64,000 bases of DNA, from NCBI GenBank assembly GCA_963793115.1, contig CAWBYV010000010.1:576755-640754 (forward strand), given 5' to 3'. The stretch comes from an uncultured delta proteobacterium (lineage in GTDB: Bacteria > Desulfobacterota > Binatia > Binatales > Binataceae). Numbering within the stretch: the first letter of the stretch is position 1; every line of letters begins with the position of its first letter. Position numbers and translations under genes: made by a program. Below the pieces are notes generated by a model. It was not told the DNA's origin. It was given only the letters and a program-made list of their open reading frames with translations, and searched no databases. Positions 11,258 through 47,256 of this stretch are shown here, one piece after another.

Positions 11258-12862
11258 ATGAAAGTCGACGATTTTCTAAGAGCAGTGGAATGCCTCACCG
11301 GCAGCAAACTCAAGCAGGTCAGCCAAGCCGACAAAGACTGTCTTCGCGACCTGTTAGCGAATGACGATGCGCGCATAGACTGTTCCCAGTTCAACGAACT
11401 TTTACTTCTAGTCAACAAGGATAGGCTCGAGCTGCCGTTCTTTCTGTACTTCTTCACGCAGAAGTGCCGGGTCAAGGGCATAGCTGCAGCAGTCAGCCGG
11501 TTTCAACAGGCCGCGATGCTCAGGTACGGCAATTTCATTTGGGCGTATCGAACTCTTTCCCGCATCAAGGAGCGATCGGCCCTTATGCTCGAATTAGGCG
11601 AGTTCGGGCTCCAGCCGAACGCGGAACTCAAGAGACTGAAGAGCCGACGCTCCAAACTTTTAGAAATCGATTCTGTGGATCGAGAACAGACAGTTCTCCT
11701 CGGCTATCTGTCCTCGGTAGATATCGCCGCCGATAAAGAGAGAAGCGAGTTCTTGAAACGAGTTGAAGCCGTTCTTGGCCCAAAGGCGACGCTTGGCTCG
11801 TTGAGATCAGCGGTAGCGAAATTTGCTAGGCCGGACGCGCGAGCAGATCTACTCGGATTGGTGGCCAAGTTCGCAAGGATAAGGAATACTAACTCGATGG
11901 AGCGTTTTCGCGACTTTCTAGACGAATCGGCCGTGAGGATTGAAGCTAACCGGGCAACGTTGGAATCGGTTCAATCGAGAGGTAGGCGCAACCAAGAGAT
12001 TTACCTCACTTGGGATCATATGGATATCTACTTCGCCACGTCGATGCGAAAACCATGGGAGTTTCGTGATCTTTATGACTTCATTAAACAGCTAATGTCT
12101 ACGAGGAGATTGAAGCAACTGAAATTACGCCATTTCGATCCAACACAAAGTTTCACGCCTCACAGGATTAACAAGGGCCTGCTCGAAGCTTTGATGCTAA
12201 AAAGGGCGAAATGCACAGTCTACTCTGTCCAAGATGCTGATACCCTGGGCAAGGATTCGGAGTTGGCGGCAACGCTGGCGCAGGGAAAGCCGGTAGTCGC
12301 ATACGTGCCCGAAGTCCACGTCCAAAAGAGGTCGATCGAGTTGTCGAAGGAGGAGCCAACAACGATTCTCGAGCGTCTGAAGTTCGTACTATACGCTGAC
12401 GAATCTTTCAGTCGTAATGTGAGCTCCGCCGACTACGAGTTTGTGAGGGGGCTCGATGAGGAGAAATTGGCCGACTCAAGAATCTGGAGGTCTGTTCCGG
12501 ACTCTGACGCCACGAGCGAAATCCGCCGGAGGTTTCGGCAAGAGATCAGGCGGCTTTGCGACATAATTGCGTCCGCCGAGAAGAGAATTTATGATGTGAG
12601 AGCAGGGACGCTACGACAGTTCCATCCATTGGCGCTTCAGGTTAATCTCGACACCGGCGTCGCCAACGGTGTTCTCGTGGTCAGAGAAGTCGAACAGTGC
12701 TCAAGGCTCCTGTGGAACATCGTGACCAGGACGATGGATTTCGAGCTTGAGGAGGATGGGGATCTCTGGTACCTTCGCGAGCGCATCAGCAATTGCGTTT
12801 ACCGCGTTGTTACGAAAGACCGGAAGTTGAGCAATTGCTTCTGGAACTTCTACCTGCGTTGA
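11258..12862 (+). CDS. hypothetical 534-aa protein with central nucleoside 2-deoxyribosyltransferase-like (Rossmann) module
   Basis: Markedly AT-richer than its flanks. The start is MKVDDFL.. at 11258. The centre, DIYFATSMR ... FDPT ... VQDADTLGKDSELAATLAQGKPVVAY, resembles the sugar-nucleotide-binding D-x-G-(T)-x-x-E-x-G-x-A-x-x-x-GKPV signature of that fold. Confidence 0.65.
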   Translation: MKVDDFLRAVECLTGSKLKQVSQADKDCLRDLLANDDARIDCSQFNELLLLVNKDRLELPFFLYFFTQKCRVKGIAAAVSRFQQAAMLRYGNFIWAYRTLSRIKERSALMLELGEFGLQPNAELKRLKSRRSKLLEIDSVDREQTVLLGYLSSVDIAADKERSEFLKRVEAVLGPKATLGSLRSAVAKFARPDARADLLGLVAKFARIRNTNSMERFRDFLDESAVRIEANRATLESVQSRGRRNQEIYLTWDHMDIYFATSMRKPWEFRDLYDFIKQLMSTRRLKQLKLRHFDPTQSFTPHRINKGLLEALMLKRAKCTVYSVQDADTLGKDSELAATLAQGKPVVAYVPEVHVQKRSIELSKEEPTTILERLKFVLYADESFSRNVSSADYEFVRGLDEEKLADSRIWRSVPDSDATSEIRRRFRQEIRRLCDIIASAEKRIYDVRAGTLRQFHPLALQVNLDTGVANGVLVVREVEQCSRLLWNIVTRTMDFELEEDGDLWYLRERISNCVYRVVTKDRKLSNCFWNFYLR

Positions 12863-12890
12863 TGGATGAAGATGAAGAGGAGGATGACCT

Positions 12891-13070
12891 GTGGCTCGTG
12901 ACAGCAAACTGATGCTTCGCCGGCAGGTTCGCCAAGATTTTTTGAGCTTTGACGAGCGCGCATCATATGATCTTGACCAGATTCGTGCGGAATTTCGCAA
13001 GAAGATCTATTCGCGCGAAGGACTACGCCTCGTCAAGCAGCCAGGGAGCAAGTCAAAGAAGCGCGGTTGA
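12891..13070 (+). CDS. possible small basic protein (59 aa)
   Basis: GTG at 12891 preceded by GAGGAGG with a 7-8 nt spacer. Reads (M)ARDSKLMLRRQVRQDFLSFDERASYDLDQIRAEFRKKIYSREGLRLVKQPGSKSKKRG. Below the ORF-track cutoff. It has the same AT-rich composition as the upstream gene. Confidence 0.3.
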   Translation: MARDSKLMLRRQVRQDFLSFDERASYDLDQIRAEFRKKIYSREGLRLVKQPGSKSKKRG

Positions 13071-13336: not shown

Positions 13337-14056
13337 TTGACCGATGCGGCTATTCGATGCCCGGCGGATGCGCCGGCGTATCAACGGCCGCCATTCTACT
13401 ATCGCGGCGCGCGCTCGATCGCAGTCGCCTTCGAGACCGACGTCGATGCTGCGTTGGAGGTGCTTCCGTCGCCGCTTGCTCTGAGCGAGCCGGCGATCGC
13501 GGCGCTATCGTTCTACGAATATCCCTGGAGCACCTTCGGCCCGTACGACGAAGCGATTCTGTCGCTGATGGTTGAGCACCAGGGCCGGCCTTTGCTCTAT
13601 ATCCAGCAGATCGCCGTGACGACGGAGCCGCCGATGCTGGGCGGACGCGAGATCTGGGGCTTCCCCAAAAAGCTCGCGGCAATCGAGTTCAAGTCCGAAC
13701 GCGACATGCTCTTCGGCACGCTGGAGCGGCCGGCGGGACTGCGACTGGCAAGCGCCGTCGTCCGTCCCGAGCGGCCGGCCTCGCAGTCCCTCAGCGCGCC
13801 ACGTTCGGCCGTCAGCTTGCGGCTCATCCCGTCGCCCGAACAGCGTGCCGAGCGGCCGTCATGCGCCGAACTGGTCGAATGCGAAGCCGAGCAGAAAATC
13901 ATCGAGGCGTGGGAGGGCGAGGGTTCGATTTCATTTGCCGAACACTCCTCGCTCGATCCGTGGGACCGCTTCCCCGTCAAGCGCGTGCTCTCGGCGAGCT
14001 ATCTGGTCTACGACATGACGCTCGGCTTCGGCAAAGTGATCGCCCAACTGCGCTAG
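13337..14056 (+). CDS. acetoacetate decarboxylase family protein
   Basis: Contains PPFYYRGARSI.. and ..EPPMLGGREIWGFPKKLAAIEF, typical of the ADC family. TTG start as in the track. Confidence 0.75.
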   Translation: MTDAAIRCPADAPAYQRPPFYYRGARSIAVAFETDVDAALEVLPSPLALSEPAIAALSFYEYPWSTFGPYDEAILSLMVEHQGRPLLYIQQIAVTTEPPMLGGREIWGFPKKLAAIEFKSERDMLFGTLERPAGLRLASAVVRPERPASQSLSAPRSAVSLRLIPSPEQRAERPSCAELVECEAEQKIIEAWEGEGSISFAEHSSLDPWDRFPVKRVLSASYLVYDMTLGFGKVIAQLR

Positions 14057-20557: not shown

Positions 20558-21223
20558 TCACACGCCGCGGGCGCCGGGCGGCCATATGTGCTTGTGGATC
20601 TGAAGCTGCAAGCGCGCCGGAATACGATCTTCGAGTATCCAGGCGGCGAGCCGCGCCGGCTCCAACCGCCCGAACGCGCAACTGAAGAGTATCGCGCTAA
20701 CGCGTTCAGCAAGCGCGCGGCTTCGGACCACGTCGCGCGCCCATTCGTAGTCGGCGCGATCGCCGATCACGAACTTGACCTCGTCGTGCGCGCTTAGATG
20801 GCCGAGGTTGCTCCACAGATTTTTTCCGCACTCGCCGCTGCCGGGACATTTGAGGTCCATGATCTTGATGACGCGCGGATCGATCCGGCTCACGTCGCTC
20901 GCGCCGGAGGTCTCGATCATCACGCTGAGTCCGCGCCCGAGCAGCGCGAGCATCAGCGGATGGACTGCGTCCTGCAACAGCGGCTCGCCGCCGGTTATCT
21001 CGACCAGCGGACAGCGATGCGCCTCCACCTGCGCGACGATCTCGGCGACGGTCATCCGGCGCCCCTCGCTGAAGGCGTATTCGGTGTCGCACCAGTCGCA
21101 GCGCAGATTACACCCGGTCAGCCGCACGAACACGCACGGGCGCCCGGCATGCGTCGACTCGCCCTGGATACTGTAGAAGATCTCGTTGACGAGCAGCGTC
21201 GCGGCCTGGTTGGTTTCAGCCAA
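20558..21223 (-). CDS. queE: 7-carboxy-7-deazaguanine synthase (radical SAM)
   Basis: LVNEIFYSIQGESTHAGRPCVFVRLTGCNLRCDWCDTEYAF is the QueE signature, including the CX3CX2C cluster. Confidence 0.9.
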   Translation of the reverse strand: MAETNQAATLLVNEIFYSIQGESTHAGRPCVFVRLTGCNLRCDWCDTEYAFSEGRRMTVAEIVAQVEAHRCPLVEITGGEPLLQDAVHPLMLALLGRGLSVMIETSGASDVSRIDPRVIKIMDLKCPGSGECGKNLWSNLGHLSAHDEVKFVIGDRADYEWARDVVRSRALAERVSAILFSCAFGRLEPARLAAWILEDRIPARLQLQIHKHIWPPGARGV

Positions 21224-22391
21224 GCTGCTTGCGCGCCGCCGCGAGCGCGTCCTCCATCACCCGGCGAAGCGGCACGCGATGCGCCAGCGCGGCGCGGCGG
21301 CAATCTTCGTACTCGGGCGCGAGCGTCGCGGGTGCGCCGCCGTCGGGGCCGGAAACCTTGACCCGTATTTCACCCCATCGGGTCGCCAGCTTGACGATCT
21401 CGCGATTGAGCTTGAGGCGCGCCACCGGATGGAACCGGATTCCGATCGTCGAAGTCTCGGCGAACAGCACGCCGGCGAGCCGCTCGCGGATCGCGGCCTC
21501 GGCGATCAGCGCGAGCGTCACGCCCGGCCTGCCCTTTTTCATGATCGTCGGCGTAATCGTCACGTCGCGCGCGCCTGCGGCGAACAGCCGCTCCGCCAGG
21601 TGCTCGTAGATCTGCGGGTTGAGGTCGTCGATATTGGCCGCGATCTCGACCATCTCGTCGGACGCGAAGGCCTGCCGCTCCTGGCCGATTATCATGCGCA
21701 ATACGTTAGGCCGATCGCTGAATTCCTTGGTGCCGGCGCCGTAGCCCACTTTTTCGATCTCGAAGGCGCAGGGCACTGGAGCGGGACGCGCGAGCGCCTT
21801 GATGACCGCGGCGCCGGTCGGGGTGACCATCTCGGACGATCCGTCGCCGAGCCGCACTGCGAAGCCGGCCAGCAGCTCGGCGGTGGCGGGCGCCGGAGCC
21901 GGAATCACCCCGTGCGCGGAACTGACGAAGCCCGATCCCATCGGGATCGGCGACACCAGGATCTGACCGACGCCGAGCTGGTCGAAACCCCACGCCGACG
22001 CGATCACGTCCACGATCGAATCGACGGCTCCGAGCTCGTGAAAGTGGACCTCTTCGGCGCTGGTATGATGGATTTTCGCCTCGGCGTCAGCGAGCACGCC
22101 GAAGATCGCGTTCGCGTCGCGCTTGACTGAATCGGGCAGGTCGCCTGCGTCGATCATCGCGCGAATCTCGCCGAGCTGGCGCTCGGGCTGCGGCTCGAGC
22201 ACCTCAACGTCGAACTTGGTCGCCGAGATTCCGCTTACGATTTTGCGGCGGGCCGCAACCCGATAGCCGCGTAGCGGCATCGAATCGAGCGCGCGCTTTA
22301 ACTCGGCGAGCTCCCCGCCGCAATCCAGCAGCGCGCCGGCGATCATATCGCCGCTCAGCCCCGAGAACGCGTCGAGATAGGCGGTTTTCAT
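21216..22391 (-). CDS. larC: nickel insertion protein LarC (DUF111 family)
   Basis: N-terminus MKTAYLDAFSGLSGDMIAGALLDCG and about 390 aa. Overlaps the queE start by 8 nt. Confidence 0.85.
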   Translation of the reverse strand: MKTAYLDAFSGLSGDMIAGALLDCGGELAELKRALDSMPLRGYRVAARRKIVSGISATKFDVEVLEPQPERQLGEIRAMIDAGDLPDSVKRDANAIFGVLADAEAKIHHTSAEEVHFHELGAVDSIVDVIASAWGFDQLGVGQILVSPIPMGSGFVSSAHGVIPAPAPATAELLAGFAVRLGDGSSEMVTPTGAAVIKALARPAPVPCAFEIEKVGYGAGTKEFSDRPNVLRMIIGQERQAFASDEMVEIAANIDDLNPQIYEHLAERLFAAGARDVTITPTIMKKGRPGVTLALIAEAAIRERLAGVLFAETSTIGIRFHPVARLKLNREIVKLATRWGEIRVKVSGPDGGAPATLAPEYEDCRRAALAHRVPLRRVMEDALAAARKQLG

Positions 22392-22850: not shown

Positions 22851-23717
22851 ATGAAGGTTCGTAAGGCCGTTATCGTCGCGGCCGGCTTTGGCACTCGCAT
22901 GTTGCCGGCCTCGCGGGTGATACCCAAGGAGCTGCTGCCGGTGGTGGACACTCCGGCGATCCAGCTAATCGTCGAGGAAATCACGTCCTCCGGAATCGAC
23001 GACATCGCAATCGTGATCAGCCCCGGGCGCACGCTGGCGCTGGATCAGTTTCGTCCCGCGCCCGAACTGGAGCAGTATCTCGAAGAGCGCGGCAAGGGCG
23101 ACTTGCTCGCGATAGTCAGGGCCAGCTCCAAACTCGCGCGAATCACGCCGATCGAACAGCCCGCGCCGCTCGGGCTCGGCCACGCGGTGATGCAGGCGCG
23201 CGATTTCGCCGCCGGCGAGCCGATTGCGGTAATCCTGCCCGACGATATCGTTGACGCGCCGCGGCCGTGCCTGAGACAGATCCTCGAGGTTGCCGAGTAT
23301 CGCAACGCGCCGGCACTTTCGTTGCTCAGGGTTCCCGAGAGCGAGCTTTCCAAGTACGGCATTGTCGAGGTGAATCGGGTCGAGGGTCGGCTCTACCGGC
23401 TGACCGGGATGGTCGAGAAGCCGCGGCCCGGCGATGCGCCGAGCGACTTCGCGATCATCGGGCGCTACGTACTGATGCCGGAAATCTTCGACCTGTTGCG
23501 CGACACACCACCCGGAGCCGGCGGCGAGATTCAGCTCACCGACGCATTGCTCAAACTCTGCAAGCGCCGCGAGGTTTATGGCTACGAATTCGAGGGCACT
23601 CGCTACGACCTGGGCGATCGGGCGGGCTTTGTGATCGCGCAAATCGGTCTCGGCTTGAAACGGCCCGATCTCGCTGATAGGTTGCGGGCTTATCTGAGGT
23701 CGATCAGCAACTCGTAG
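22851..23717 (+). CDS. galU: UTP--glucose-1-phosphate uridylyltransferase
   Basis: KAVIVAAGFGTRMLPASRVIPKELLPVVDTPAIQ is the GalU N-terminal signature. 288 aa. Confidence 0.9.
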   Translation: MKVRKAVIVAAGFGTRMLPASRVIPKELLPVVDTPAIQLIVEEITSSGIDDIAIVISPGRTLALDQFRPAPELEQYLEERGKGDLLAIVRASSKLARITPIEQPAPLGLGHAVMQARDFAAGEPIAVILPDDIVDAPRPCLRQILEVAEYRNAPALSLLRVPESELSKYGIVEVNRVEGRLYRLTGMVEKPRPGDAPSDFAIIGRYVLMPEIFDLLRDTPPGAGGEIQLTDALLKLCKRREVYGYEFEGTRYDLGDRAGFVIAQIGLGLKRPDLADRLRAYLRSISNS

Positions 23718-23735: not shown

Positions 23736-23811
23736 GGGGCAGTAGCTCAGCTGGGAGAGCACCACGTTCGCAACGTGGGGGTCGAGGGTTCAAATCCCTT
23801 CTGCTCCACCA
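23736..23811 (+). tRNA. tRNA-Ala (anticodon CGC), CCA encoded
   Basis: Cloverleaf read by eye. Acceptor stem GGGGCAG/CTGCTCC with the G3:U70 Ala identity pair. D arm AGCTCAGCTGGGAGAGC. Anticodon stem-loop CCACG-TTCGCAA-CGTGG. T arm GGGTTCAAATCCC. 3' ACCA followed by a T run. Confidence 0.9.
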
Positions 23812-24054: not shown

Positions 24055-24843
24055 ATGGAATACAAGGAACTCATCGGCAGCCGGCGATCGATCCGCTTCT
24101 TCCAGTCGTGGCGTCCCGTCGAGCGCGAGAAGGTCCAGATAATGCTGGAGGCGGCACGGATCGCGTCTTGCGCGGTGAATGCCAGCTTCTTTCGCGCCAT
24201 CGTCGTCTTCCGCGACGACCTCGATCGCGCCACGCTCGACGCGCTCAAAACGCCGGTGTCGGGGCTCAACATCGAGCTGGCTCCCGTGCACATCTACTGT
24301 TTCGTGGACATGGGCGCCTACAAGGGCGCGCAAGCGCGGCTCAAGCAACTGGTTGACGTGGGCGCGCTGAACGCGACTCACGGCTGGAGCCACAAGTTCG
24401 TCGATGACTTCGTCTGGCCGAACATCCTGAAGCCGCTGGCCGACAACGCCGGTCAGGCGCAAGTGGCCGCCGCAGCCGCCTCCGATGCGGGAATCGCGGT
24501 CTGCCAGGCGATGCTCGCCGGAGTCGATGAGGGACTCGGCGTCTGCCTGTCGGCCTTCGTGTACGAGCCGATCAGAAAGATCCTCAACCCGCCCCCGGAA
24601 TGGCTGCCCCTGTTCGTGCTGCTGGCCGGATATCCGGCGGAATCGCCCAAGGCCGGCGGGCAGCGGCCGCGGCCGCCGCTCGAACAGCTTTACTTCGAGG
24701 GCAAGTACGGCAATCCGTTCAAGTCCGACCCCAAAGTTACCGAGCAGTTGCGCGCGAAGAAGATGTTCCAGGCGCCTGCGCCGCTGCCTTGGCGCAAGGA
24801 GGAGATCAAGGCGCTGGCGCGCATGTTCGGACTGCCCGAATGA
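24055..24843 (+). CDS. nitroreductase-fold protein (module A)
   Basis: MEYKELIGSRRSIRFFQSWRPVEREKVQIMLEAARIASCAVN is a nitroreductase-type N-terminus. Paralog of 39747-40530. Confidence 0.75.
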   Translation: MEYKELIGSRRSIRFFQSWRPVEREKVQIMLEAARIASCAVNASFFRAIVVFRDDLDRATLDALKTPVSGLNIELAPVHIYCFVDMGAYKGAQARLKQLVDVGALNATHGWSHKFVDDFVWPNILKPLADNAGQAQVAAAAASDAGIAVCQAMLAGVDEGLGVCLSAFVYEPIRKILNPPPEWLPLFVLLAGYPAESPKAGGQRPRPPLEQLYFEGKYGNPFKSDPKVTEQLRAKKMFQAPAPLPWRKEEIKALARMFGLPE

Positions 24844-25199
24844 CTGCTCCGGCCAAGCCGCTCGCCGACTACGAATCGGTGCAAACCTGGTTCCGGGGAC
24901 TCACCGAGCAGTCGGGCGTCGATCCGCAGGCCGATCCGTCGAGGCTCGAGTTGCTGGGCGAGTTTTGCGCCCTGGTCGAGCTCGATCCTGACGAGATCGT
25001 GACCGCCTGCCTGCTGCACAAGGAGGGAGCCGAGACCAAGATCAGCATCAAGGGACGACGCCGGATGGCTGACAAAATCGCCGAGTTTCAGGCGCAGGAC
25101 GTGAGCGGCAGCTCGCGCGATCGTGCGCGGCGCGGCAACACGATTCGAAGTTTCCTCATTCACAACGGTATCCTGTTACAGTCCGGAATCCAGGCTTAG
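24840..25199 (+). CDS. small hypothetical protein coupled to nitroreductase-fold gene (module A)
   Basis: The ATG overlaps the upstream TGA (ATGA at 24840-24843). Starts MTAPAKPLADYESVQTWF.. and ends ..SFLIHNGILLQ. Paralog of 39403-39741. Confidence 0.6.
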   Translation: MTAPAKPLADYESVQTWFRGLTEQSGVDPQADPSRLELLGEFCALVELDPDEIVTACLLHKEGAETKISIKGRRRMADKIAEFQAQDVSGSSRDRARRGNTIRSFLIHNGILLQSGIQA

Positions 25200-26767: not shown

Positions 26768-28813
26768 ATGACGCGGCCAATAACGATAGAGTGCAGGCGC
26801 CTCCGGTCCGGCGCGGCGCGACCCCTGTTCCTTGTCGCGATGGTGGTGGTGCTGGCGCCCGTTTGCGTAATGCTGGTTCAGTCAGCCCCGAAGGCAAGCG
26901 GCCCGATAATCGTCAACACGCTCGGCGACGCGAGCACCTCCGGCGACGGCCTTTGCAGCCTCCGCGAAGCGATCAACAACGCGAACAGCCCTGAGACCGA
27001 CACCACGGGCGGTGACTGCGTAGTCGGCACCGGCGCGGACACCGTCAACTTCAGCGTCAGCGGCACGATCACCCTGAGCGACGTTCTTCCTACTATCCGG
27101 CACTCTCTGGCGATTGATGGGAACGGGCAAACCGTCACCGTTGACGGCGCGGGCAGTCACCAAGTGCTGGTGCTAAACTTTAACGCCACAGTCAGCCTGA
27201 ACAATCTGACTATTGCCCACGGCGCCGGCGGAAACGGGGGAGCCATCAACGTCGGCAATGGGGCAACTCTGACCGTCACGAACACCACCTTCTCCGGAAA
27301 CAACGCGGGCGGTTACGGCGGCGCTATCCTTTTTGCCTATGGCTTTCCGCTGGTCGTCAGGAACAGCAGCTTCTCCGGCAACAGCGCGGGCATCGGAGGC
27401 GGAGCCGTCTTTTTTAACGGAAGTGGCTTCCTCGTCAGCAACAGCAGCTTCTCCGGCAACAGCGCGAGCTTCGGCGGAGCGATCGCCAGCGGACAAAGCA
27501 TATTCTATGATGGAAGTGCCTCGCTGACTGTCGTCGGCAGCACCTTCTCCGGCAACAGCGCGGGCAGCGGCGGAGCCATAAGCAACGCAAACACGCTAAC
27601 GATCAGCAAATCCATCCTAGCTAGCAGCTTCGGTGGAAACTGCTTCCCCGAGCCGCCCAGCCCGACTGCCAACGGCGGCGACAATATCTCCGACGATGCG
27701 TCATGCGGGTTTGGCAGCAGCACGGGTGCCAATGGAAAAGCCATAGGAGACAGCGTCAATCCTTTGCTCGACCCCAATGGGTTGCAGAACAACGGCGGAC
27801 CTACTGAGACGATCGCGCTTCAATCAACGAGTCCGGCAATCGATGCCATCCCGGCCGCTCAGTGCCCGAGCGGGAGTACCGACCAAAGGGGCTTTGGCCG
27901 GCCTGCTCCCGGACACAGCGCCTGCGACATTGGCTCGTTCGAGTTCGGCGCCGTTGCTCCAACGCCGACACCGACTCCATCGCCGAGTCCAACGCCGACG
28001 CCGACTCCGACCCCGACACCTACCCGGACGCCGACACCAACTCCGACCCTGACTCCCACTCCGACTCCTTCGCCGACGCCTACGCCTACCCCGACACCTA
28101 CTCCGACTCCTACACCTACTCCTACACCGACCCCGACGCCTACGCCAACCGCCGCGCCGACCTTCGCCGCCGGCGGCAGGCTCTCTTTGTCGGCGAGCGT
28201 GATCGCATTCGGGAACGTCGGCACCGGCACCACCGCGAATCGCACCCTCAAGATCACGAACAGCGGCAAGGGCACTCTTTTGGGCAACGTCGATATCAGC
28301 GGGCTGCCGAATCCTCCTTTCACCGTGACGGCCGGATCCGGCCCGTTCAGCTTGGCCCACACTCATGTGAAGTCGGTGACGATCGTCTTTGCGCCCGGCG
28401 CGCAGGCCAGCCCGACCGTGGATTTCTCCGGCCAGATCGTGGTCACCAGCGGCGACAGCCACCATCCGACGGAGTCCGTCGCGGTAAGCGCTACGGGCGA
28501 AACCGGCACGCTCTCGGTCCGGGCCGCAATCAGCCTGACCGTGCATCACGGCAAGAAGAAGAGCGTGAACCTGGTAATCAGGAACACGGGTCTGGGTGTG
28601 CTGCATGTCAGCGCAGACTTCAGCGGGCTCGGCCCGCTATTCAGCGCGGCACCCACGACGAACCCATTCACGCTGGCCCATAACAAAACCCACACGCTGA
28701 AGGTGAAGTTCGCACCGCCGGCGGCCGGGTCGTTCAATGGCACGATCACGTTCACTGCCGATGACCCCGCTCATCCTTCGGTCACCGTGATGGTGACGGG
28801 CACCGCGACTTAG
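26768..28813 (+). CDS. secreted beta-helix repeat protein with Pro-Thr linker and C-terminal Ig-like (choice-of-anchor-D-like) domains
   Basis: N-terminal signal/anchor, then the [11 protein letters not shown] motif. Repeated (T/S)FSGNxA..GGAI units typical of Pmp-type parallel beta-helix repeats. A linker rich in T and P follows, then [24 protein letters not shown]-type domains. Confidence 0.8.
27959..28150 (+). repeat. low-complexity (ACN CCN)n tract encoding the Pro-Thr/Ser linker
   Basis: Encodes [60 protein letters not shown]. Confidence 0.9.
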
Positions 28814-35817: not shown

Positions 35818-35989
35818 AAGCTTGTATGCCCTCCCTGCGGCCGCAACCATGGCCGCATCATTTGCACGAATTACTGTTGCGCCAGTACTAAGCAAAATTG
35901 AAAAGCAGCTACTCCCATCAGCATCTTCGCGCAAAACCTCCCTTCTTTAGGCGCAGTTGGCTAGCACCGAGGGATTTTCTATCCGCCGC

Positions 35990-37603
35990 CTACAAGGAAG
36001 AAATCCACGGGCCTGTGCCCTCGGTGTCGGCGCTGCCAGGCCTTTGGTCGGCGCCGTACCGCTGGTGATAAGGAGCGATCAGGCATATCGCTTCCGCCTT
36101 CCCTACTGGCGAGCCTGTCTCCTGGTAAACGGTCGCGATGCAGCGTGGGCACGCAGATGCGAGGGAACAGCCCTGACAGCCTTTGAACGATCCATTACGG
36201 AGACTGCGAATGTAGCTCACCTGCTTGTTCGAATCCGCGAGAATTTCACGAAGTGGTTGCTCTCGGACGTTACCGAGCTCCCATGGGAAGGCGACGCATG
36301 GCCGCACGTTGCCACGCGCATCGATGGCCACGACAGTGCGGGCAGCGCCACAGACACTGGAGTCTGGATCGTCAATCGGACACCGCGAGAGTCCGTATCT
36401 TGCCCCGTTGGGCTTTCGGATCTGGGCCGAGCCTCGGAAGATAATGTCGGCCATGATGCCATGTCGATCGAGCCATTTCAGGTCGTCAGGGAGAAGGCGC
36501 TCCTCGAGGGAGCCTAAGGAGCCGTCTAGCTGCCGTGTCACGAGCAGGTCGAAACCAATTGGGGCATCGATGCTACGGGCAAAATCTACCAAGCCGTCAA
36601 GGTGATGGAAATTTGAACGCATGACAACACAAGACAGACGGCAGCGCTGACCCGCACTGTGGCAGCGCTTGAGCGCGTCAAGTGTCTTCGCGTGGCTCCC
36701 GCTCCGCCGCACGATGGCATCGTGCACGGACGGATCCATGCTATAGAGGCTGACTTGGACCTCGGTTATGTGCATGCGTCTAAACGCGGCGAGAACCGCG
36801 TCGTTTAACAAGGTTGCGTTCGTCTTGATGATGACCGAGAAGCGGAGGCGCCGTGCATACTCACAAATGCTGAGCAACCGCCGTTGAACAAGCGGCTCCC
36901 CGCCAGTGAAGATCAACTCCAGGCAACCGATTTCTCGAAGCTCGTCCAGGAGGCTCCAAAACGCGCGAACGTAGCCCCGGTAGCCTGATGCCTTCGTGGC
37001 CGGGAGATAGCAGTGCGTGCAACGCAGGTTGCACGCTGCCGTCATTTCGATGTAGGCCTGGAACGGGACCGCTGCCTTCGTGCAATAGGACTTGATAGAT
37101 TCACGCAGATCTGTGTCGCTCTGTGCTGGCCGCTCGCGAGGGAGTTCGTTTACCCGGAGAGCCCCTTGGCCCCGCACGAGGAGCCCGAGGGTAAGAAACG
37201 ATGATCGAAGGAAGGCATAGTCGCGTTCGGCCGTGACGCTATCAATGCCGTACCGCCGACACATCTCTCTGGGAACGTCGCGGTCCGCTACACCGCGATC
37301 GAGGGCTTCAACGATTTCGCCGGCGGTCTCGTTGAGAAAGACCATGCGACCGCCGTCCGTCAGGACGACGAGGTAAGTATCGGCAAATCGCTGGTAAGCG
37401 ATCGCGTCGTTCAGCCTCGCATCGCTAAACCCGACCGACTCTTCGAGGCATGTCCGCGGTGCAAATTCCTTCGCCATACCCGAGTTTCTCATGAGACGGT
37501 AGCCATCTCCCTTGCGACAGTCTGCAGCCCAGAGTGCTCGGGGCCCCGAATCCAACGCCTCGCGGTTGACAAAACGGGATGCGCGACGGAAGAGGTGCAA
37601 CAA
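35990..37603 (-). CDS. radical SAM/SPASM peptide maturase with N-terminal PqqD-like RiPP recognition element
   Basis: The start is uncertain (alternative ATGs at 37492 and 37477). The N-terminus VVLTDGGRMVFLNETAGEIVEALDRG..DYAFLRSSFLTLGLLV is PqqD-like. The core has AACNLRCTHCY (CX3CX2C). The C-terminus has CX12GX4C ... CX2CX5CX2C ... C, a SPASM-type auxiliary cluster pattern. Confidence 0.8.
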   Translation of the reverse strand: MLHLFRRASRFVNREALDSGPRALWAADCRKGDGYRLMRNSGMAKEFAPRTCLEESVGFSDARLNDAIAYQRFADTYLVVLTDGGRMVFLNETAGEIVEALDRGVADRDVPREMCRRYGIDSVTAERDYAFLRSSFLTLGLLVRGQGALRVNELPRERPAQSDTDLRESIKSYCTKAAVPFQAYIEMTAACNLRCTHCYLPATKASGYRGYVRAFWSLLDELREIGCLELIFTGGEPLVQRRLLSICEYARRLRFSVIIKTNATLLNDAVLAAFRRMHITEVQVSLYSMDPSVHDAIVRRSGSHAKTLDALKRCHSAGQRCRLSCVVMRSNFHHLDGLVDFARSIDAPIGFDLLVTRQLDGSLGSLEERLLPDDLKWLDRHGIMADIIFRGSAQIRKPNGARYGLSRCPIDDPDSSVCGAARTVVAIDARGNVRPCVAFPWELGNVREQPLREILADSNKQVSYIRSLRNGSFKGCQGCSLASACPRCIATVYQETGSPVGKAEAICLIAPYHQRYGADQRPGSADTEGTGPWISSL

Positions 37604-37719
37604 CCTCAGACTTCATTGCACGCGTGGCAGCCGCCGGGTGCGATTTTGGAAACCACCGCTTCCTTACTGACGAGCCTTCCTCACCAGGGCTATAGACGAG
37701 CCGGACACGGCTAGGGGAG

Positions 37720-37896
37720 CTAGCACTTGCACGTAATCTGCTGCCAATGGAAGTTAGTGGGGCAGGCTGCGCCAGACATGGAGACTTTGGCGGTAGTGCC
37801 ACGGATTTCAGGAGCCTTGTACTGGAGCCTTTCTTCGACCGTGGTCTCCCGGGTGTTCCTTTTCTTCTGGAGTTCCCTCACCACCATCTTCTTCAT
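37720..37896 (-). CDS. candidate RiPP precursor peptide (58 aa)
   Basis: Not in the ORF track (under 60 aa). GAGGAG sits about 7 nt upstream of the ATG at 37896. Reads MKKMVVRELQKKRNTRETTVEERLQYKAPEIRGTTAKVSMSGAACPTNFHWQQITCKC, stop TAG at 37720-37722. The leader is charged and the C-terminal tail has 3 Cys. It lies directly upstream of the maturase on the same strand. Confidence 0.55.
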   Translation of the reverse strand: MKKMVVRELQKKRNTRETTVEERLQYKAPEIRGTTAKVSMSGAACPTNFHWQQITCKC

Positions 37897-38244
37897 CGTA
37901 TACTCCTCTTCGCGTGATGGGTTAGAGACCGAGCGCGGTCATATGCGGCTTGGCGGCGTGAGCGCATCATGCTTGGTAATCATGTTCCGGTCGACCTACC
38001 CGAGTTTGCCAGGGTTTGCCTGAGACCCCGCATTTTCCATGCAAGGCCCGTACCCGCCCGCTACGAGGCGCTCCAAATGATTTCGGCGTGTTCGGATGGC
38101 CCGTTACGCACCAGTTGCGTCCTACGGAGACACGACTAGGCGGTGGCAAGGATCCCGAAACGGCGTACACCCCGTGGACTTCTCTTGAAAAGGGCACCGG
38201 CGCTCGCTGCCGACCGCAGCGGGCGGCGCTTCGCCCCTGCCAAA

Positions 38245-39153
38245 CTATATATCCAGCTTTTCCCAACGACCCTGTGTCTTACGAAACACGATACCGCCTA
38301 CACGGTTACCCCCTTGAGCCGGTTCAGAGTCGAAGAGTGAAAGAACGAAGTCATTTCCATTGCCCCAACCCAATATGCCAAACGCGATATGCGTATTTCC
38401 TTTGCTGGTCACAAAAAATTCCCCGAGAGCCGCGAGATCGCTTCTAGAAAAAAAGTCGGAGTTTCCTTTTTCAAGCGCGGACAATATGACCGGCGCTAAG
38501 AACAAAGCACCCGCCTTGGCCAGATACTTCAGCTTGATCCTGCCAAGCAGCTTCTGAACACTCCCGGGTCTGCTCTCCTCCAGCAAGTCTGCGACGGCAT
38601 CGAGGCAGGAACTTGTGAGATCCGCACACTCGTCGGGAATGTAACTCTTCAGGACAGTGCGCGTTTTCGTTCGCCGCGCGGTTTGAGCTTGTCGAAAAAA
38701 TCGTGCGGGTCGAATTTCAACGTCCTCCTCGTACGTTTCCGACTCCTCGAAACGTGCCTTTTCGCACGCCAACCGATATTCGGTTAGCGATTTCTCGGCC
38801 GCTGCCAGTGCGTCGCCATCCTTGCCTACACCGCCGGCCCTCTTTTTCACGACATTGGCGTGCGCGACGAAGTAAAGGAAGTGCGGGATCCAGCGCACAC
38901 TTTCCGGCGCCTTGGGATCATTCGCGGCCCGCGCCAGCAAGTCAATTTGTGGAAGTGCCTTCGCCGGATCCTCCAAGGACTGCCGCAACAACTCTGTGAT
39001 CTTGGCGCTGAGCCATTGCCCCGATTGCTCCTCTTTCAGATCCGAACCATCGCTTGGAAGTCGCGTCCCGCATTTGCCACAAAACATCGCATCTAACCGA
39101 ATGCCCCGACGGCCGCATCCTGGGCACGATCGTTCGCCGGCTGTCGTTGGCAT
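38245..39153 (-). CDS. zinc-ribbon domain hypothetical protein
   Basis: N-terminal CPGCG-x14-CGKCG zinc ribbon; the rest is helical or unknown. AT-richer composition shared with the RiPP genes downstream. Confidence 0.6.
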   Translation of the reverse strand: MPTTAGERSCPGCGRRGIRLDAMFCGKCGTRLPSDGSDLKEEQSGQWLSAKITELLRQSLEDPAKALPQIDLLARAANDPKAPESVRWIPHFLYFVAHANVVKKRAGGVGKDGDALAAAEKSLTEYRLACEKARFEESETYEEDVEIRPARFFRQAQTARRTKTRTVLKSYIPDECADLTSSCLDAVADLLEESRPGSVQKLLGRIKLKYLAKAGALFLAPVILSALEKGNSDFFSRSDLAALGEFFVTSKGNTHIAFGILGWGNGNDFVLSLFDSEPAQGGNRVGGIVFRKTQGRWEKLDI

Positions 39154-39402
39154 GTCCCAACTACTCCGCTTTCGCCATCCGCGCCATCACGCGGGGCCCT
39201 CCAGAGCTGCTAACCACGGGCTACGCCACCCGGCCAAACTCCACACCTGTCGAAGAACGGGCACCCTCCGCGAAGATCGTGGACCCGGCATTGCGGACAC
39301 CTGGGGGTGCCAGATGCCGGGCCATCTTGACACGCGTCCACACCTATGGAGCTTACCGCCCTCCCTGCGACCACAACGATGGCCGCGTCACGCAATTCGT
39401 GC

Positions 39403-39746: not shown

Positions 39747-40530
39747 CTACTCCGGAAGGCCCAATTGCCTCGCCAGCCGCCGAATTTCCTCTTTGCGGCC
39801 GGGCTGCGGCGCCGCAGCCTGGATCAACCTGGATTGGCGCAATTCCTCGACGACTTTCGGGTCGCGCGGGAAAGGTTTGCCGTACTGGCCAAGGAAGTAT
39901 TGCTCCTCGAAAGGGGGACGCGGCCGTTGCCCGCCCGCCTCGCGCGATTCAAGCGAATAACCGACGTTCAGCACGTAGAGCGGCAGCCAATCCTGAGGCG
40001 GCTTGACGATTTCATTGACCACCGGCGCAAGGAACGCGGTCAGGCACGCGCCCAGTCCCAGCTCGAACGCCATCAGCAATCCCTGGCAAGCGGCCACTCC
40101 ACAATCGAAGGCCGCCATCACAGGATAGTGCGGAGTCTGGGTCATCGGCTTCAGGAGATGCGGATAGACGATCTCGTCAACGAACTTGTGGCTCCATCCG
40201 TGACTGGCTGCCACGACGTTGGCGTCGTAGAGTCTCCTTGAGCCGCGCGCCCTGCACGCGGTTCACCACGCCGAGGTCGGCATAGAGATAGATATGCACC
40301 GGAGCCAGTTCGATCACGACCGCCTGCACGGGGGTCTTCATCTTTTCGAGCTCGGCCTTGGGTATCTCGTCGCGCTTGACCACCACGGCGCGCAGCCAGT
40401 GGGCGTTGACCGCGCAGGACGCCCGCAGGAAGGCCTCGAGAATCTTCTGGATCTTCTCCTGCTCGACGGGCCGCTTGGGATCGAAAAAGCGAATCGAGCG
40501 CCGCGTTCCGACCAATTCTTGGAATTCCAT
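39747..40530 (-). CDS. nitroreductase-fold protein (module B), frame-disrupted
   Basis: MEFQELVGTRRSIRFFDPKRPVEQEKIQKILEAFLRASCAVN (ORF 40177-40530) continues in ORF 39747-40214 (..ASHGWSHKFVDEIVYPHLLKP..). The junction ARLKE/LYDANVVAASHGW needs removal of one base near 40233. Collinear with 24055-24843. Confidence 0.75.
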
Positions 40531-45117: not shown

Positions 45118-47256
45118 TCACTGCAACGCGGCGGTGCAACTCACGCCACCTGCGCAGTCGGTCGTCTGGCACGACACTCCGAAGCTGAAGGAACTGTTCC
45201 CCGCCTGGGCCGAGCATCCGTCGTTGCAACCTACCGCGAGGCCGACCGAGGCGATGCTCGAGCACAGTTGCGATTCGAAAGAGGAAGTCGAGGTTCCGCC
45301 CGGCACCTGGATGTCGGTCGAAGACACCGGCACGCTAACCGTCTGGCATCCTGTATCCGGGTTGCAGCATGTCTCGCTCGCCGAGCAGCTTATGGCATAT
45401 GTGCCGGGCGTGACCTGGCCCGGCGTGGACTTCGGCGTAGGCGTTGCTTGCGGCGTCGGAGTCGGCGAAGGCGGCGCCGGGGGCGCCGGCGGTGCCGGAG
45501 GAGGCGGCGGCGGGAAGACCGGCGGCGTGGGAGGAGCCGGCGCCGTAGCGCCGAAGGCGTCGAGAACCTGCTTCGTGCCGTCGAAGAGATCCTTGAGATT
45601 CAGCGCCGTGCTAAAGTTCTCGATCTCAGGCAAGACCCCCTCTAACAGCCCTTGGAACGCGCCGTTGAGTTGCGCCAGTCCGGTCTCGATGATCGCGATC
45701 GCGCCGGGGTCGGTCGGCTGCTGCGTGCCGCCCACCAGAATCAGTCCGCCGCCGAGCTCGAGTCCAAGCGCGATGAGCGCCGCAGCCGGCAGCGCCAAGA
45801 CATAGGCCGGCGCTCCTGCCAAGGCGAGCAGCGCGATTGCGATCCCGCCGGCTCCGAGCACGACTCCGGCGGCGGTGTCGGCGGCTTGTGCGACCTGGCA
45901 GTTCGTCGAACTGGCGGACGCAGAGAAAGCCTGCGCTATGCCTGCCGAGAAGAGCGATGCGTCGCCGGTGTTTTGCAACGCACTCGAAGCCTCGGCGGAC
46001 ATGCATCCGGCGCTTTGCGCAAACGCCATCGACGGTCCCAGATAGGGCCACAAGCCGCCGGACTCGGTCAGCAGCGTAGGCGAAGCGTTGGCCAGCGAGC
46101 TCAGCGCCGCGATCAGCATCTGATCCGACTCGGCCAAATTCTGACTGGTCACGGTCACCGGCGTGCCGCTCACGCTGCCGAGCGTCACGCTCGCCTCGCT
46201 GCCGTCTTGCACTGGCTGGAGCAGCGCTATCAGGTCGTCGATCGAGGTCGCCTGTCCGGCGAGTGCGTCCGAAATTTGCGGCTCCTGCGCCGAGGAGATC
46301 TGTCCTTGAAACTGGCTGTTGACCTGCGCCAGCGCCTGCAGGTACGCAAGCGTCAGGCTCCCGGGCGCAACGCCGGCGGGGAGGGCGGGAAGCGCGCCGA
46401 CCTTTAACACCGCCGCGTTCGAAAGCGCGCTGCCTCCGCCGGGAAGTGTCTCGACCAGCCGGACGTTGAACTTTCCGGCGCCGGCGCTTCCGGTCCTCCG
46501 CAGGATAAACGGCGGCACCGAGACCCTCACCGTCTGCGAGTCGGCCTGCAAAGCGGGAACCTGTATCGGCGGCGATCCGGCGGCAGCGAAGTTCACCGAG
46601 ATTGCCGCGCTGGGCGATAATCTGGTTGCGCTGATGCTCAAGACGTCGAAAGGCGCCGCTGAGCGCACGCCGAGGCTGTTGAGCTTCGGAGCAACGCCCG
46701 TGCCGGTCAGGTGCGCGATTACCCGCTGGCCGGTGTCGGTGGCAACAATCAACGATCCTTTTCGCGTACCCGCGGCCGAGGGCGCGAATATCAGGTTGAA
46801 GTTGCACTTGGATTTCGGTGGTAAGTTTAGACCGCCGTTAGGACAAAGGCCCGTGGCCTGGAAGTCTCCGGTGGTCGAGGTCGAGGTGATGGAAACCGGC
46901 CTCTTTCCTGTGATCTGATAGGTGAACAGGCGAACGCCGCTGGCAGTGCCGACCGCCTGATTGCCGAAGGCCAGCGTCGCGGTGCTCGCGGTCTGGGCCG
47001 AATCGCGCGGCTCCGCGAGCAGCGGATCGAAGCGCCCGGCCAAGGCCGCCACGGCCACGGCGAGAGCGACAACGATCGGCAGGACTCTTACGATTATGCG
47101 GCCGCGGCGGCTGCTGAAAATTGACACGAAGCGACGGCGGCTAGCTGCAAACTGTTCCCACCCCACTCGACCCTCCATCACGGCGCCCTTTGGCGCGCTG
47201 CAACTGCTGCGTCGCAATCTTAACTTCATTATCTGTTCAAGCGAGTTTGCCCGCAA
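45118..47256 (-). CDS. large secreted/membrane protein: Ig-like (choice-of-anchor-D-like) domain, internal TM bundle, poly-Pro linker, Cys-rich C-terminal domain
   Basis: N-terminal anchor VLPIVVALAVAVAALAG. FGNQAVGTASGVRLFTYQITG.. is the Ig-like domain. Hydrophobic block VVLGAGGIAIALLALAGAPAYVLALPAAALIALGLELGGGLILVGG. Linker PPPPPPAPPAPPAPPSPTPTP. The last ~110 residues contain about 12 Cys. Confidence 0.65.
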   Translation of the reverse strand: MRANSLEQIMKLRLRRSSCSAPKGAVMEGRVGWEQFAASRRRFVSIFSSRRGRIIVRVLPIVVALAVAVAALAGRFDPLLAEPRDSAQTASTATLAFGNQAVGTASGVRLFTYQITGKRPVSITSTSTTGDFQATGLCPNGGLNLPPKSKCNFNLIFAPSAAGTRKGSLIVATDTGQRVIAHLTGTGVAPKLNSLGVRSAAPFDVLSISATRLSPSAAISVNFAAAGSPPIQVPALQADSQTVRVSVPPFILRRTGSAGAGKFNVRLVETLPGGGSALSNAAVLKVGALPALPAGVAPGSLTLAYLQALAQVNSQFQGQISSAQEPQISDALAGQATSIDDLIALLQPVQDGSEASVTLGSVSGTPVTVTSQNLAESDQMLIAALSSLANASPTLLTESGGLWPYLGPSMAFAQSAGCMSAEASSALQNTGDASLFSAGIAQAFSASASSTNCQVAQAADTAAGVVLGAGGIAIALLALAGAPAYVLALPAAALIALGLELGGGLILVGGTQQPTDPGAIAIIETGLAQLNGAFQGLLEGVLPEIENFSTALNLKDLFDGTKQVLDAFGATAPAPPTPPVFPPPPPPAPPAPPAPPSPTPTPQATPTPKSTPGQVTPGTYAISCSASETCCNPDTGCQTVSVPVSSTDIQVPGGTSTSSFESQLCSSIASVGLAVGCNDGCSAQAGNSSFSFGVSCQTTDCAGGVSCTAALQ

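Follow-up and report, generated by a model that had tools for sequence, protein, structure and literature searches.

The DNA considered here, referred to as the window, is a 64,000-nucleotide (64-kb) stretch of contig CAWBYV010000010.1 (positions 576,755 to 640,754) from an uncultured bacterium of the family Binataceae. The element in question is a small gene of 58 codons plus a TAG stop on the minus strand at 37720..37896, which lies next to a gene for a radical S-adenosylmethionine (rSAM) enzyme and is likely to encode the precursor of a peptide made on the ribosome and modified after translation (RiPP). The minus-strand read cgaaGAGGAGtatacgATG places the ATG at 37896-37894 and the TAG at 37722-37720, the 58-residue translation is MKKMVVRELQKKRNTRETTVEERLQYKAPEIRGTTAKVSMSGAACPTNFHWQQITCKC, and a Shine-Dalgarno sequence, GAGGAG, lies on the same strand at 37903..37908 with a 6-nt spacer to the ATG. 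Start, ribosome-binding site, stop and peptide are exactly those read in an earlier note on this DNA, which had also remarked on the charge of the first 38 or so residues (16 of them are K, R or E) and on the crowding of all three cysteines (C45, C56 and C58), together with H50 and W51, into the last 17 residues of a peptide ending in CKC; the translation bears out each of these counts. The same note described the open reading frame (ORF) as missed by the ORF list, which is true in that it falls just under the 60-residue threshold for listing, but it is not unannotated: public data (NCBI/ENA/Logan) already contain the exact peptide, on a contig of 704,968 bp, as a called protein without a name (P0001; P and L numbers below stand for proteins and contigs). 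On the same strand, 242 nt downstream of the small gene, lies the gene for a 495-residue protein (35990..37477) that combines an N-terminal PqqD-like RiPP recognition element (RRE), a radical SAM core and a SPASM region, and which we refer to as the maturase.

Taken alone, a 58-codon ORF is not beyond chance here, since GC-rich DNA of this kind has many short ORFs (142 of at least 40 residues in 16 kb of the window at 62% GC). Further, Pfam and NCBIfam searches with the peptide, the curated precursor models included, gave no match at E<=1. Hence, the frame could be viewed as a chance ORF, an element of the 5' untranslated region or an upstream ORF that regulates the rSAM gene, a reading that the comparative data already refute. 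A protein search with the maturase recovers a tight group of orthologues (P0003-P0013) at 45-61% identity and >90% coverage, below which there is a gap and then generic rSAM proteins at no more than 33% identity. These orthologues come from unrelated metagenomes of 28-63% GC and from a Thiodictyon plasmid, and the contigs bearing them always carry a small ORF homologous to the window peptide, an example being MKKILNEVANVENCESMDKPVYEAPQILGATGKVSMSGAGCPTHTVQWQQVSCKC. Such homologous ORFs were found on L001/L006/L013, L004, L008, L009/L010 and L014, and later on L020, L025/L026, L027 and L028, with the window peptide matching relatives by tblastn at E = 6.9e-12. A gene of the maturase type, termed rSAM1 below, stands beside the precursor in every relative with readable context, the exception being the 1-kb contigs L025/L026, which have no rSAM gene on their short length. 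The pairing of the ORF with the downstream PqqD-rSAM-SPASM enzyme, as proposed in the earlier note, is thus conserved across relatives.

The pattern of substitution in the small gene was assessed by a codon-level Nei-Gojobori (NG86) comparison of the precursor homologues. Over the last 34 codons the proportion of synonymous differences (pS) is 0.54-1.0, i.e., near saturation, and that of non-synonymous differences (pN) is 0.06-0.27, giving pN/pS of 0.06-0.32 across the family and of 0.15-0.32 when the window precursor is compared with its relatives. The first 25 codons, with pN/pS of 0.4-1.1, evolve almost freely. Differences in length among the relatives amount to whole codons only, all insertions and deletions being in frame. 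Additionally, on one contig of 28% GC (L014, 1-702) the precursor gene is present three times in tandem upstream of a gene for a 264-residue protein that recurs in this family. The first copy is incomplete, being cut off at the end of the contig; between the two full copies there are five synonymous differences and none that are non-synonymous. Loss of the frame in related genomes, which the earlier note had named as the observation that would speak against the gene, was encountered nowhere, the frame, the three cysteines and the C-terminal C-[K/R]-C being kept in every relative. An AGGAG or GGAGG likewise precedes the start by 5-9 nt in eight of the ten family members examined. It is the combination of homology, purifying selection, common Shine-Dalgarno sequence and conserved linkage to the maturase that lifts the ORF above chance. 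A purely cis-regulatory role is excluded by the variable placement of the gene, which may lie before the rSAM gene, after it (contigs of P0140 and P0137) or after tfuA (L009, L021 and Thiodictyon). The 58-codon ORF is therefore a real, conserved gene under purifying selection. Opposite to it, a 98-codon ORF with a TTG start (37727..38023, plus strand) had been taken in the earlier note for a shadow of the gene; as the relatives examined, with a single exception, have one to four stops in the equivalent frame (those so interrupted are L004, L001, L009, L014, L020, L028, L025 and L027), it is indeed a shadow and not a gene.

The precursor family is very rare, amounting to about 20 sequence clusters among about 15 billion proteins. 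A profile search with the family alignment through 5.8 billion clusters returned 13 peptide clusters, and an exhaustive hidden Markov model search of 1.84 billion representative proteins returned 14 matches, with the window peptide at E = 1.4e-20 and distant members such as ...YIKPQIIATTNKSSISGSGCPTGSHKSQITCRC. A word search with the single window peptide recovered only itself, the family alignment being needed to reach the relatives, and a pattern scan of the GTDB species representatives with the maturase protein and alignment, a scan which also missed Thiodictyon, found no maturase relative. Both the window peptide and the maturase are singletons at 90% identity, whereas the neighbouring genes have many close relatives.

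Alignment of 23 sequences defines a signature for the family, Y-x2-P-x-[I/V/A]-x13-C-P-x(6 or 7)-[Q/M]-x2-C-[K/R]-C running right up to the stop codon, in which Y26, P29, C45, P46, C56 and C58 (window numbering) are invariant, the distance from the tyrosine to the first cysteine is fixed at 19 residues, and all 23 members end exactly at C-[K/R]-C. The window peptide displays every element of it: the Y-x2-P-x-[IVA] motif, the 19-residue Tyr-Cys distance, the C-P pair and the terminal C-[K/R]-C. Four segments may be recognised (all on the minus strand). Residues 1-25 (37822..37896) form a variable, hydrophilic N-terminal part of the leader, of which only the MK start is conserved. Residues 26-31, YKAPEI (37804..37821), make up an invariant YxxPx[I/V] motif that is the putative RRE-binding site. 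Residues 32-44, RGTTAKVSMSGAA (37765..37803), are a conserved linker or leader end with the family consensus TTGKxSMSGAG; Ala in place of Gly before Cys45 is peculiar to the window. Finally, residues 45-58, CPTNFHWQQITCKC (37723..37764), constitute the probable core, with the invariant C-P...C-[K/R]-C lying exactly at the C-terminus, and are one codon shorter than the core of the main group, CPTHTVQWQQVSCKC; the resulting spacing of ten residues from C45 to C56 is also that of P0136, P0139 and L028. The stretch K-x-SMSGAGCP-xx-x-VQWQQVSCKC hardly changes among the 13 close members, although their host DNA spans 28%-63% GC, and W51 and K57 are invariant in them, whereas the distant members P0135, P0136, P0138, P0140 and P0143 lack the Trp or have it elsewhere and carry Arg for Lys57 while the three cysteines stay unchanged. 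On contig L025 (748-1377), the distant member P0139 is preceded by an amidohydrolase-like fragment and followed by a protein with the motif GGCFIATCVYGS, which is not an rSAM protein, so that the arrangement on this short contig differs from that of the other clusters.

The conserved block thus comprises the C-terminal half of the leader together with the core, and the N-terminus is variable, with a likely leader/core boundary, judged from the alignment, at residues 44/45. The proposal in the earlier note of a leader followed by a core was right in outline, but its expectation of a conserved leader and a variable core is reversed in the family, in which the N-terminus varies and the motif and core are fixed. 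Similarly, the N-terminal charge which that note took to be leader-like is not the recognition feature, a role that probably falls to the invariant Y26-x-x-P29-x-I31.

Turning to the maturase, the exact 495-residue sequence is present in public data as P0002. Pfam recognises in it PqqD (PF05402) at 26.2 bits against a gathering threshold of 23.4, Radical_SAM (2e-23) and SPASM (4e-9), the latter two likewise above gathering. The RRE spans residues ~20-97 (37187..37420, minus strand) and is modelled by AlphaFold2 as three strands and three helices with a predicted local distance difference test score of ~85-92, whereas the SPASM part of the model is of low confidence. The CxxxCxxC cluster motif of the rSAM core, CNLRCTHC (C149, C153 and C156; 37010..37033), is invariant in 12 orthologues, as are seven cysteines of the SPASM region (C376, C394, C434, C437, C443, C446 and C465; 36083..36352), both on the minus strand. 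There is no conserved eighth cysteine just upstream of C376, a lack that, by analogy with CteB, we take to be compatible with an open iron site binding the substrate thiolate; this is weakened by the presence of three more invariant cysteines elsewhere (C132, C185 and C283), any of which could supply the missing ligand. NCBIfam yields dozens of rSAM-SPASM matches (StsB, MftC, PqqE, GeoRSP, PapB, WgkB, AlbA and others), all far below the curated cutoffs (103.9 against 625 for StsB, 96 against 265 for MftC, 91.1 against 381 for PqqE, 76.6 against 340 for PapB, 70.2 against 650 for WgkB and 70.1 against 850 for AlbA), and hence the maturase belongs to no curated equivalog family. The closest structures by both sequence and fold are SuiB, SkfB, CteB and TigE, all of them RiPP maturases with N-terminal peptide-binding domains; SuiB is the best match in the PDB (1e-22 by sequence and 5e-14 by fold) but only marginally ahead of SkfB and CteB. 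Further, over its first 86 positions the maturase-family profile matches the lasso-peptide B1 proteins TbiB1 (5v1u, 4.6e-6) and TfuB1 (6jx3, 4.4e-5).

These features point to the neighbouring rSAM enzyme as the one that most likely modifies the precursor peptide. The motif [Y/W]xxPx[L/V/I/F/A] is the leader element bound by the RREs of lasso peptides and also by a second family of RiPPs that was described recently (PMC13381572). On the basis of the TbiB1 and TfuB1 profile matches, the AlphaFold2 model of the RRE and the structural matches to RiPP maturases, we propose that the N-terminal winged helix of the maturase would bind the leader through Y26-x-x-P29-x-I31 in the manner in which lasso B1 proteins bind YxxPxL. 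The fixed 19-residue spacing between Tyr26 and Cys45 could then act as a ruler that places the core in the rSAM active site, where 5'-deoxyadenosyl-radical chemistry would install at least one intramolecular crosslink centred on the three invariant cysteines. Taken together, we regard it as probable that the ORF encodes a RiPP precursor whose leader is bound through the YxxP motif and that the RRE-rSAM-SPASM enzyme 242 nt downstream is the sole dedicated tailoring enzyme of the locus, introducing a Cys-centred crosslink.

Cysteine-centred chemistry is favoured because Trp51 and Lys57 are replaceable across the family while the three cysteines and the terminal C-[K/R]-C are not. The simplest form of it, and our best guess, is a thioether of the sactipeptide or ranthipeptide type, a suggestion we make tentatively, as the crosslink could well prove to be of another kind. 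One such alternative is an aromatic side chain crosslinked through a carbon-carbon bond, as in streptide, tryglysin or darobactin, for instance between Trp51 and Lys57. The standing of the Lys-Trp crosslinking enzyme SuiB as best PDB match, the invariance of both residues in the 13 close members and a weak match to the WgkB model are in keeping with it, but the lead of SuiB is marginal, the WgkB score is far below its cutoff, and the distant members keep the cysteines while dispensing with the Trp and the Lys, so that we consider this alternative unlikely.

A further option is that the enzyme processes the C-terminal cysteine by oxidative decarboxylation or heterocycle formation. MftC acts in the former way on a C-terminal Tyr, and SbtM (model TIGR04082) forms a thio(seleno)oxazole. 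The termination of 23 of 23 members at C-[K/R]-C suggests that a free C-terminus matters, and MftC (2e-27), PqqE and the GeoRSP rSAM protein (4e-25) are among the better full-length NCBIfam matches; however, their scores, too, lie far below the cutoffs, and homology does not single out a reaction at the C-terminal cysteine, which leaves this option quite improbable. It is also conceivable, although we would give it only a minor share of credence, that the family makes a constrained small molecule, for instance a peptide of the cofactor, signal or metal-binding type with the three cysteines as its basis, and not a hypervariable "weapon", with an rSAM reaction of an undescribed type, such as one forming a crosslink or heterocycle and dependent on the free C-terminal C-[K/R]-C, and with thioamides added in most lineages.

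The relatives place the window in a series of nested gene clusters. The fullest of these comprises seven genes, encoding the precursor, the 264-residue protein, rSAM1, a second rSAM protein (rSAM2) with a C-terminal PqqD-like tail, an Amidohydro_2 protein, YcaO and TfuA, and is found in L001/L006, L004, L009/L010, L021-L024 and the Thiodictyon syntrophicum plasmid pTs417; the partial contigs L007 and L014 keep the same order. The 264-residue protein has no match in Pfam or NCBIfam, and the best model for the YcaO proteins of the relatives is of the McrA-glycine thioamidation type. Four-gene clusters (precursor, rSAM1, YcaO and TfuA) occur in L028-L031. Two-gene cassettes of the precursor and rSAM1 are seen in the window and on the contig of P0140, where both flanking genes are on the opposite strand; in L020 the precursor is directly upstream of the rSAM gene and the contig ends shortly after it. 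Most relatives add YcaO-TfuA, and many also rSAM2, the amidohydrolase and the 264-residue protein. The window is thus the minimal two-gene form of a system to which relatives add YcaO-TfuA (thioamidation), rSAM2, the amidohydrolase and the 264-residue protein, and the precursor with rSAM1 is the common denominator, which is consistent with rSAM1 carrying out the class-defining step.

Several observations weigh against the proposed function. Homology does not discriminate the reaction, since the maturase is approximately equidistant from enzymes that form carbon-carbon bonds, thioethers and cyclopropanes: SuiB, PqqE and MftC are of the first kind, SkfB, CteB, StsB and PapB of the second, and TigE (8VPO, cited in PMC10878394) produces cyclopropylglycine. 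Within the close group it is the window peptide that diverges most, with G44A, one residue fewer between C45 and W51, V54I and S55T. No protease or exporter gene is seen in the low-GC islet in which the pair lies. Finally, tblastn with the 264-residue protein, rSAM2, the amidohydrolase, YcaO and TfuA found none of them in the 64-kb window, and a loss of function is possible given the absence of these five accessory genes of the closest relatives.

The last point raises the alternative that the two genes are what is left, in decay, of a seven-gene cluster, carried in on a fragment, whose product is no longer made. The closest rSAM relatives (60% identity) are all in seven-gene clusters, the core of the window departs from residues nearly invariant in the close group, and peptide and enzyme are, as noted above, singletons when neighbouring genes are not. 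Erosion does occur in the family, as seen in L008 (1639-2408; 63% GC), where the 264-residue gene between the precursor and the rSAM gene matches only residues 141-259 in a 125-residue ORF; this apparently truncated gene may represent a stage on the way to losing it. Against decay, both window ORFs are intact behind a strong Shine-Dalgarno sequence, and the window retains all 18 "family-invariant" peptide residues and all ten iron-sulphur cysteines of the enzyme. Further, its ten-residue C45-C56 spacing is shared with other members, and the recurrence of two- and four-gene architectures in other lineages points to the precursor and rSAM1 as a self-sufficient module. Hence, we see little likelihood of decay and retain the reading of the pair as a working precursor and maturase.

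In Thiodictyon syntrophicum Cad16T (plasmid pTs417, NZ_CP020371.1; L033), the precursor MKKIADKVDALKQGAVVKKAVYKAPEVRATTGKASMSGAGCPTHTVQWQQVSCKC lies at 13339-13506, about 330 nt after tfuA, at a position where the plasmid's gene table, which is possibly incomplete, lists no coding sequence. In the same cluster an IS66 element is inserted between the 264-residue gene and rSAM1, and toxin-antitoxin genes adjoin it. Toxin-antitoxin genes are likewise found in the neighbourhood of the L021 cluster, together with a faint Abi_2 match.

In the window, the cassette lies within an accessory islet (35900..39401) of low GC, whose right edge is a breakpoint in synteny. The GC content is 0.54-0.60 from 39.2 to 35.9 kb as opposed to 0.64-0.66 on both flanks, and a relative of ~95% nucleotide identity (L032) is collinear with the window by blastn from 44802 to 39401, where a conserved ORF of 112 residues has just ended, and then diverges completely. 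At third codon positions, GC is 0.68 in the rSAM gene and 0.59 in a gene for a 302-residue protein, compared with 0.71-0.82 in the neighbours; the precursor, at 0.75, is not distinguishable from them. The 302-residue gene (38245..39153, minus strand; GC 0.55) encodes an N-terminal C-x2-C...C-x2-C zinc ribbon, with only weak zinc-ribbon matches in Pfam, and shares with the cassette both the islet and the Logan contig L005. Its product was considered as a counterpart of the 264-residue protein of the relatives and was rejected, there being no similarity between the two. The islet of ~3.3 kb, holding the cassette and the zinc-ribbon gene, was probably acquired horizontally. A neighbouring window protein clusters at >=90% identity with a protein of 'Candidatus Binatus sp.', which makes a host from within Binatia probable.

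The 242-nt spacer between precursor and maturase (37478..37719, minus strand) was considered as the site of a structured RNA or attenuator, which was rejected: its predicted fold (z = +1.29) is no better than that of shuffled sequences, and it contains no terminator-like site and no Rfam match. A tblastn search of the spacer with the 264-residue protein of the relatives found no remnant of that gene. A second radical SAM gene in the window (20558-21223, minus strand) was likewise rejected as a part of the cassette, being a probable QueE from motifs in its translation and unrelated to the precursor pair. It is adjoined by genes for a LarC nickel chelatase (21216-22391, minus strand) and a UTP-glucose-1-phosphate uridylyltransferase (22851-23717, plus strand), and the tRNA-Ala(CGC) at 23736-23811 (plus strand) is the only Rfam or ARAGORN match in the window. 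Beyond the right edge of the islet, a nitroreductase gene (39750-40530, minus strand) is split near 40240 into frames 40530-40234 and 40253-39750, which is either a frameshift pseudogene or an assembly error, the L032 copy (12216-12998; 260 residues) being intact; a paralogous pair of a nitroreductase and a 112-residue protein gene lies at ~24055-25181 (plus strand). Two genes encode large, probably secreted or surface proteins, one (26768-28813, plus strand) with a long PTPTPT linker between Gly/Asn/Ser-rich repeats and a C-terminal domain, and the other (45118-47256, minus strand) with a PPPAPP-rich stretch and a Cys-rich C-terminus.

The pair shows the generic features of an RRE-dependent rSAM-SPASM RiPP system, i.e., an adjacent, co-oriented precursor, the CxxxCxxC motif with a seven-cysteine SPASM region, a PqqD-like RRE and co-occurrence across genomes. 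It resembles the sactipeptide and ranthipeptide systems (subtilosin/AlbA, SKF/SkfB, thermocellin-SCIFF/CteB, freyrasin/PapB and streptosactin/StsB) in its short precursor and single RRE-bearing rSAM-SPASM (or Twitch) maturase and in having cysteines as the invariant residues of the core; SkfB and CteB rank among the best structural matches, and StsB gives the most complete NCBIfam alignment. The family differs from them in its nearly invariant core across phyla, its strict C-[K/R]-C end and, mostly, the addition of YcaO-TfuA. By score the maturase falls outside the sactipeptide models (StsB and AlbA) as well as the ranthipeptide model (PapB), and no SCIFF or CxxxD precursor model of NCBIfam matches the peptide at E<=1.

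With streptide (SuiA-SuiB) it shares an RRE-rSAM-SPASM enzyme and a minimal operon of precursor and maturase, but identity to SuiB in the structural alignment is only 15-17%, there is no dedicated exporter or protease gene, and the peptide has neither the KxxxW motif of streptide nor the WGK motif of tryglysin, in addition to the variation of Trp and Lys in distant members and the low WgkB score. The likeness to lasso peptides concerns leader recognition, in that an invariant YxxPx[I/V] leader would be bound by an RRE whose profile matches both TbiB1 and TfuB1; unlike lasso systems, the family is without a lasso cyclase or B2 protease, and its RRE is fused to the rSAM enzyme.

The relatives, which encode YcaO and TfuA beside the precursor, resemble the YcaO-TfuA thioamidated RiPPs (thioamitides and thiovarsolins) and the thioglycine modification of McrA; the window, in whose 64 kb tblastn found no significant match to either protein, lacks this feature. 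A survey of thioamidated RiPPs describes rSAM-containing clusters only from Burkholderia and some actinomycetes, which are not of the window family (PMC8120280). Lastly, the pyrroloquinoline quinone (PQQ; PqqA/PqqD/PqqE) and mycofactocin (MftA/MftB/MftC) pathways are alike in having a small precursor with a near-invariant C-terminus and an rSAM-SPASM enzyme guided by a PqqD-type RRE, which modifies the C-terminal region, as would presumably be the case here. However, the family lacks their Glu/Tyr and Val-Tyr motifs, any MftA or PqqA motif and the other pathway genes, has a distribution that is patchy and accessory and not that of a metabolic trait, and remains below the MftC and PqqE cutoffs.

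A literature search with the core sequence found no paper, and searches for combinations of YcaO, TfuA, SPASM and PqqD yielded general surveys only. We accordingly rate the system as an undescribed family of precursor and maturase within the rSAM-SPASM RiPPs, present here in minimal form, the precursor of which is in no curated model or searchable paper. Its unusual traits are its rarity, the near-constant core, a lasso-type YxxP motif paired with a fused RRE-rSAM enzyme, and the nesting of two-, four- and seven-gene architectures. It also holds a lesson for annotation, in that a "radical SAM protein" may become interpretable through a neighbouring gene of 58 residues that falls just under a 60-residue ORF threshold.

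The two-gene cassette of the window, with one peptide and one enzyme, is the simplest construct in which the function of the rSAM enzyme could be studied, and Thiodictyon syntrophicum Cad16T provides a cultured host for the full pathway. If the family were indeed to make a constrained small molecule, the two-gene version would expose its first, core-defining step alone. New kinds of peptide chemistry continue to emerge from radical SAM-SPASM maturases, and any precursor family newly found may hold another; while uncharacterised rSAM RiPP families are numerous, the one found in the window is unusually constrained, modular and tractable.

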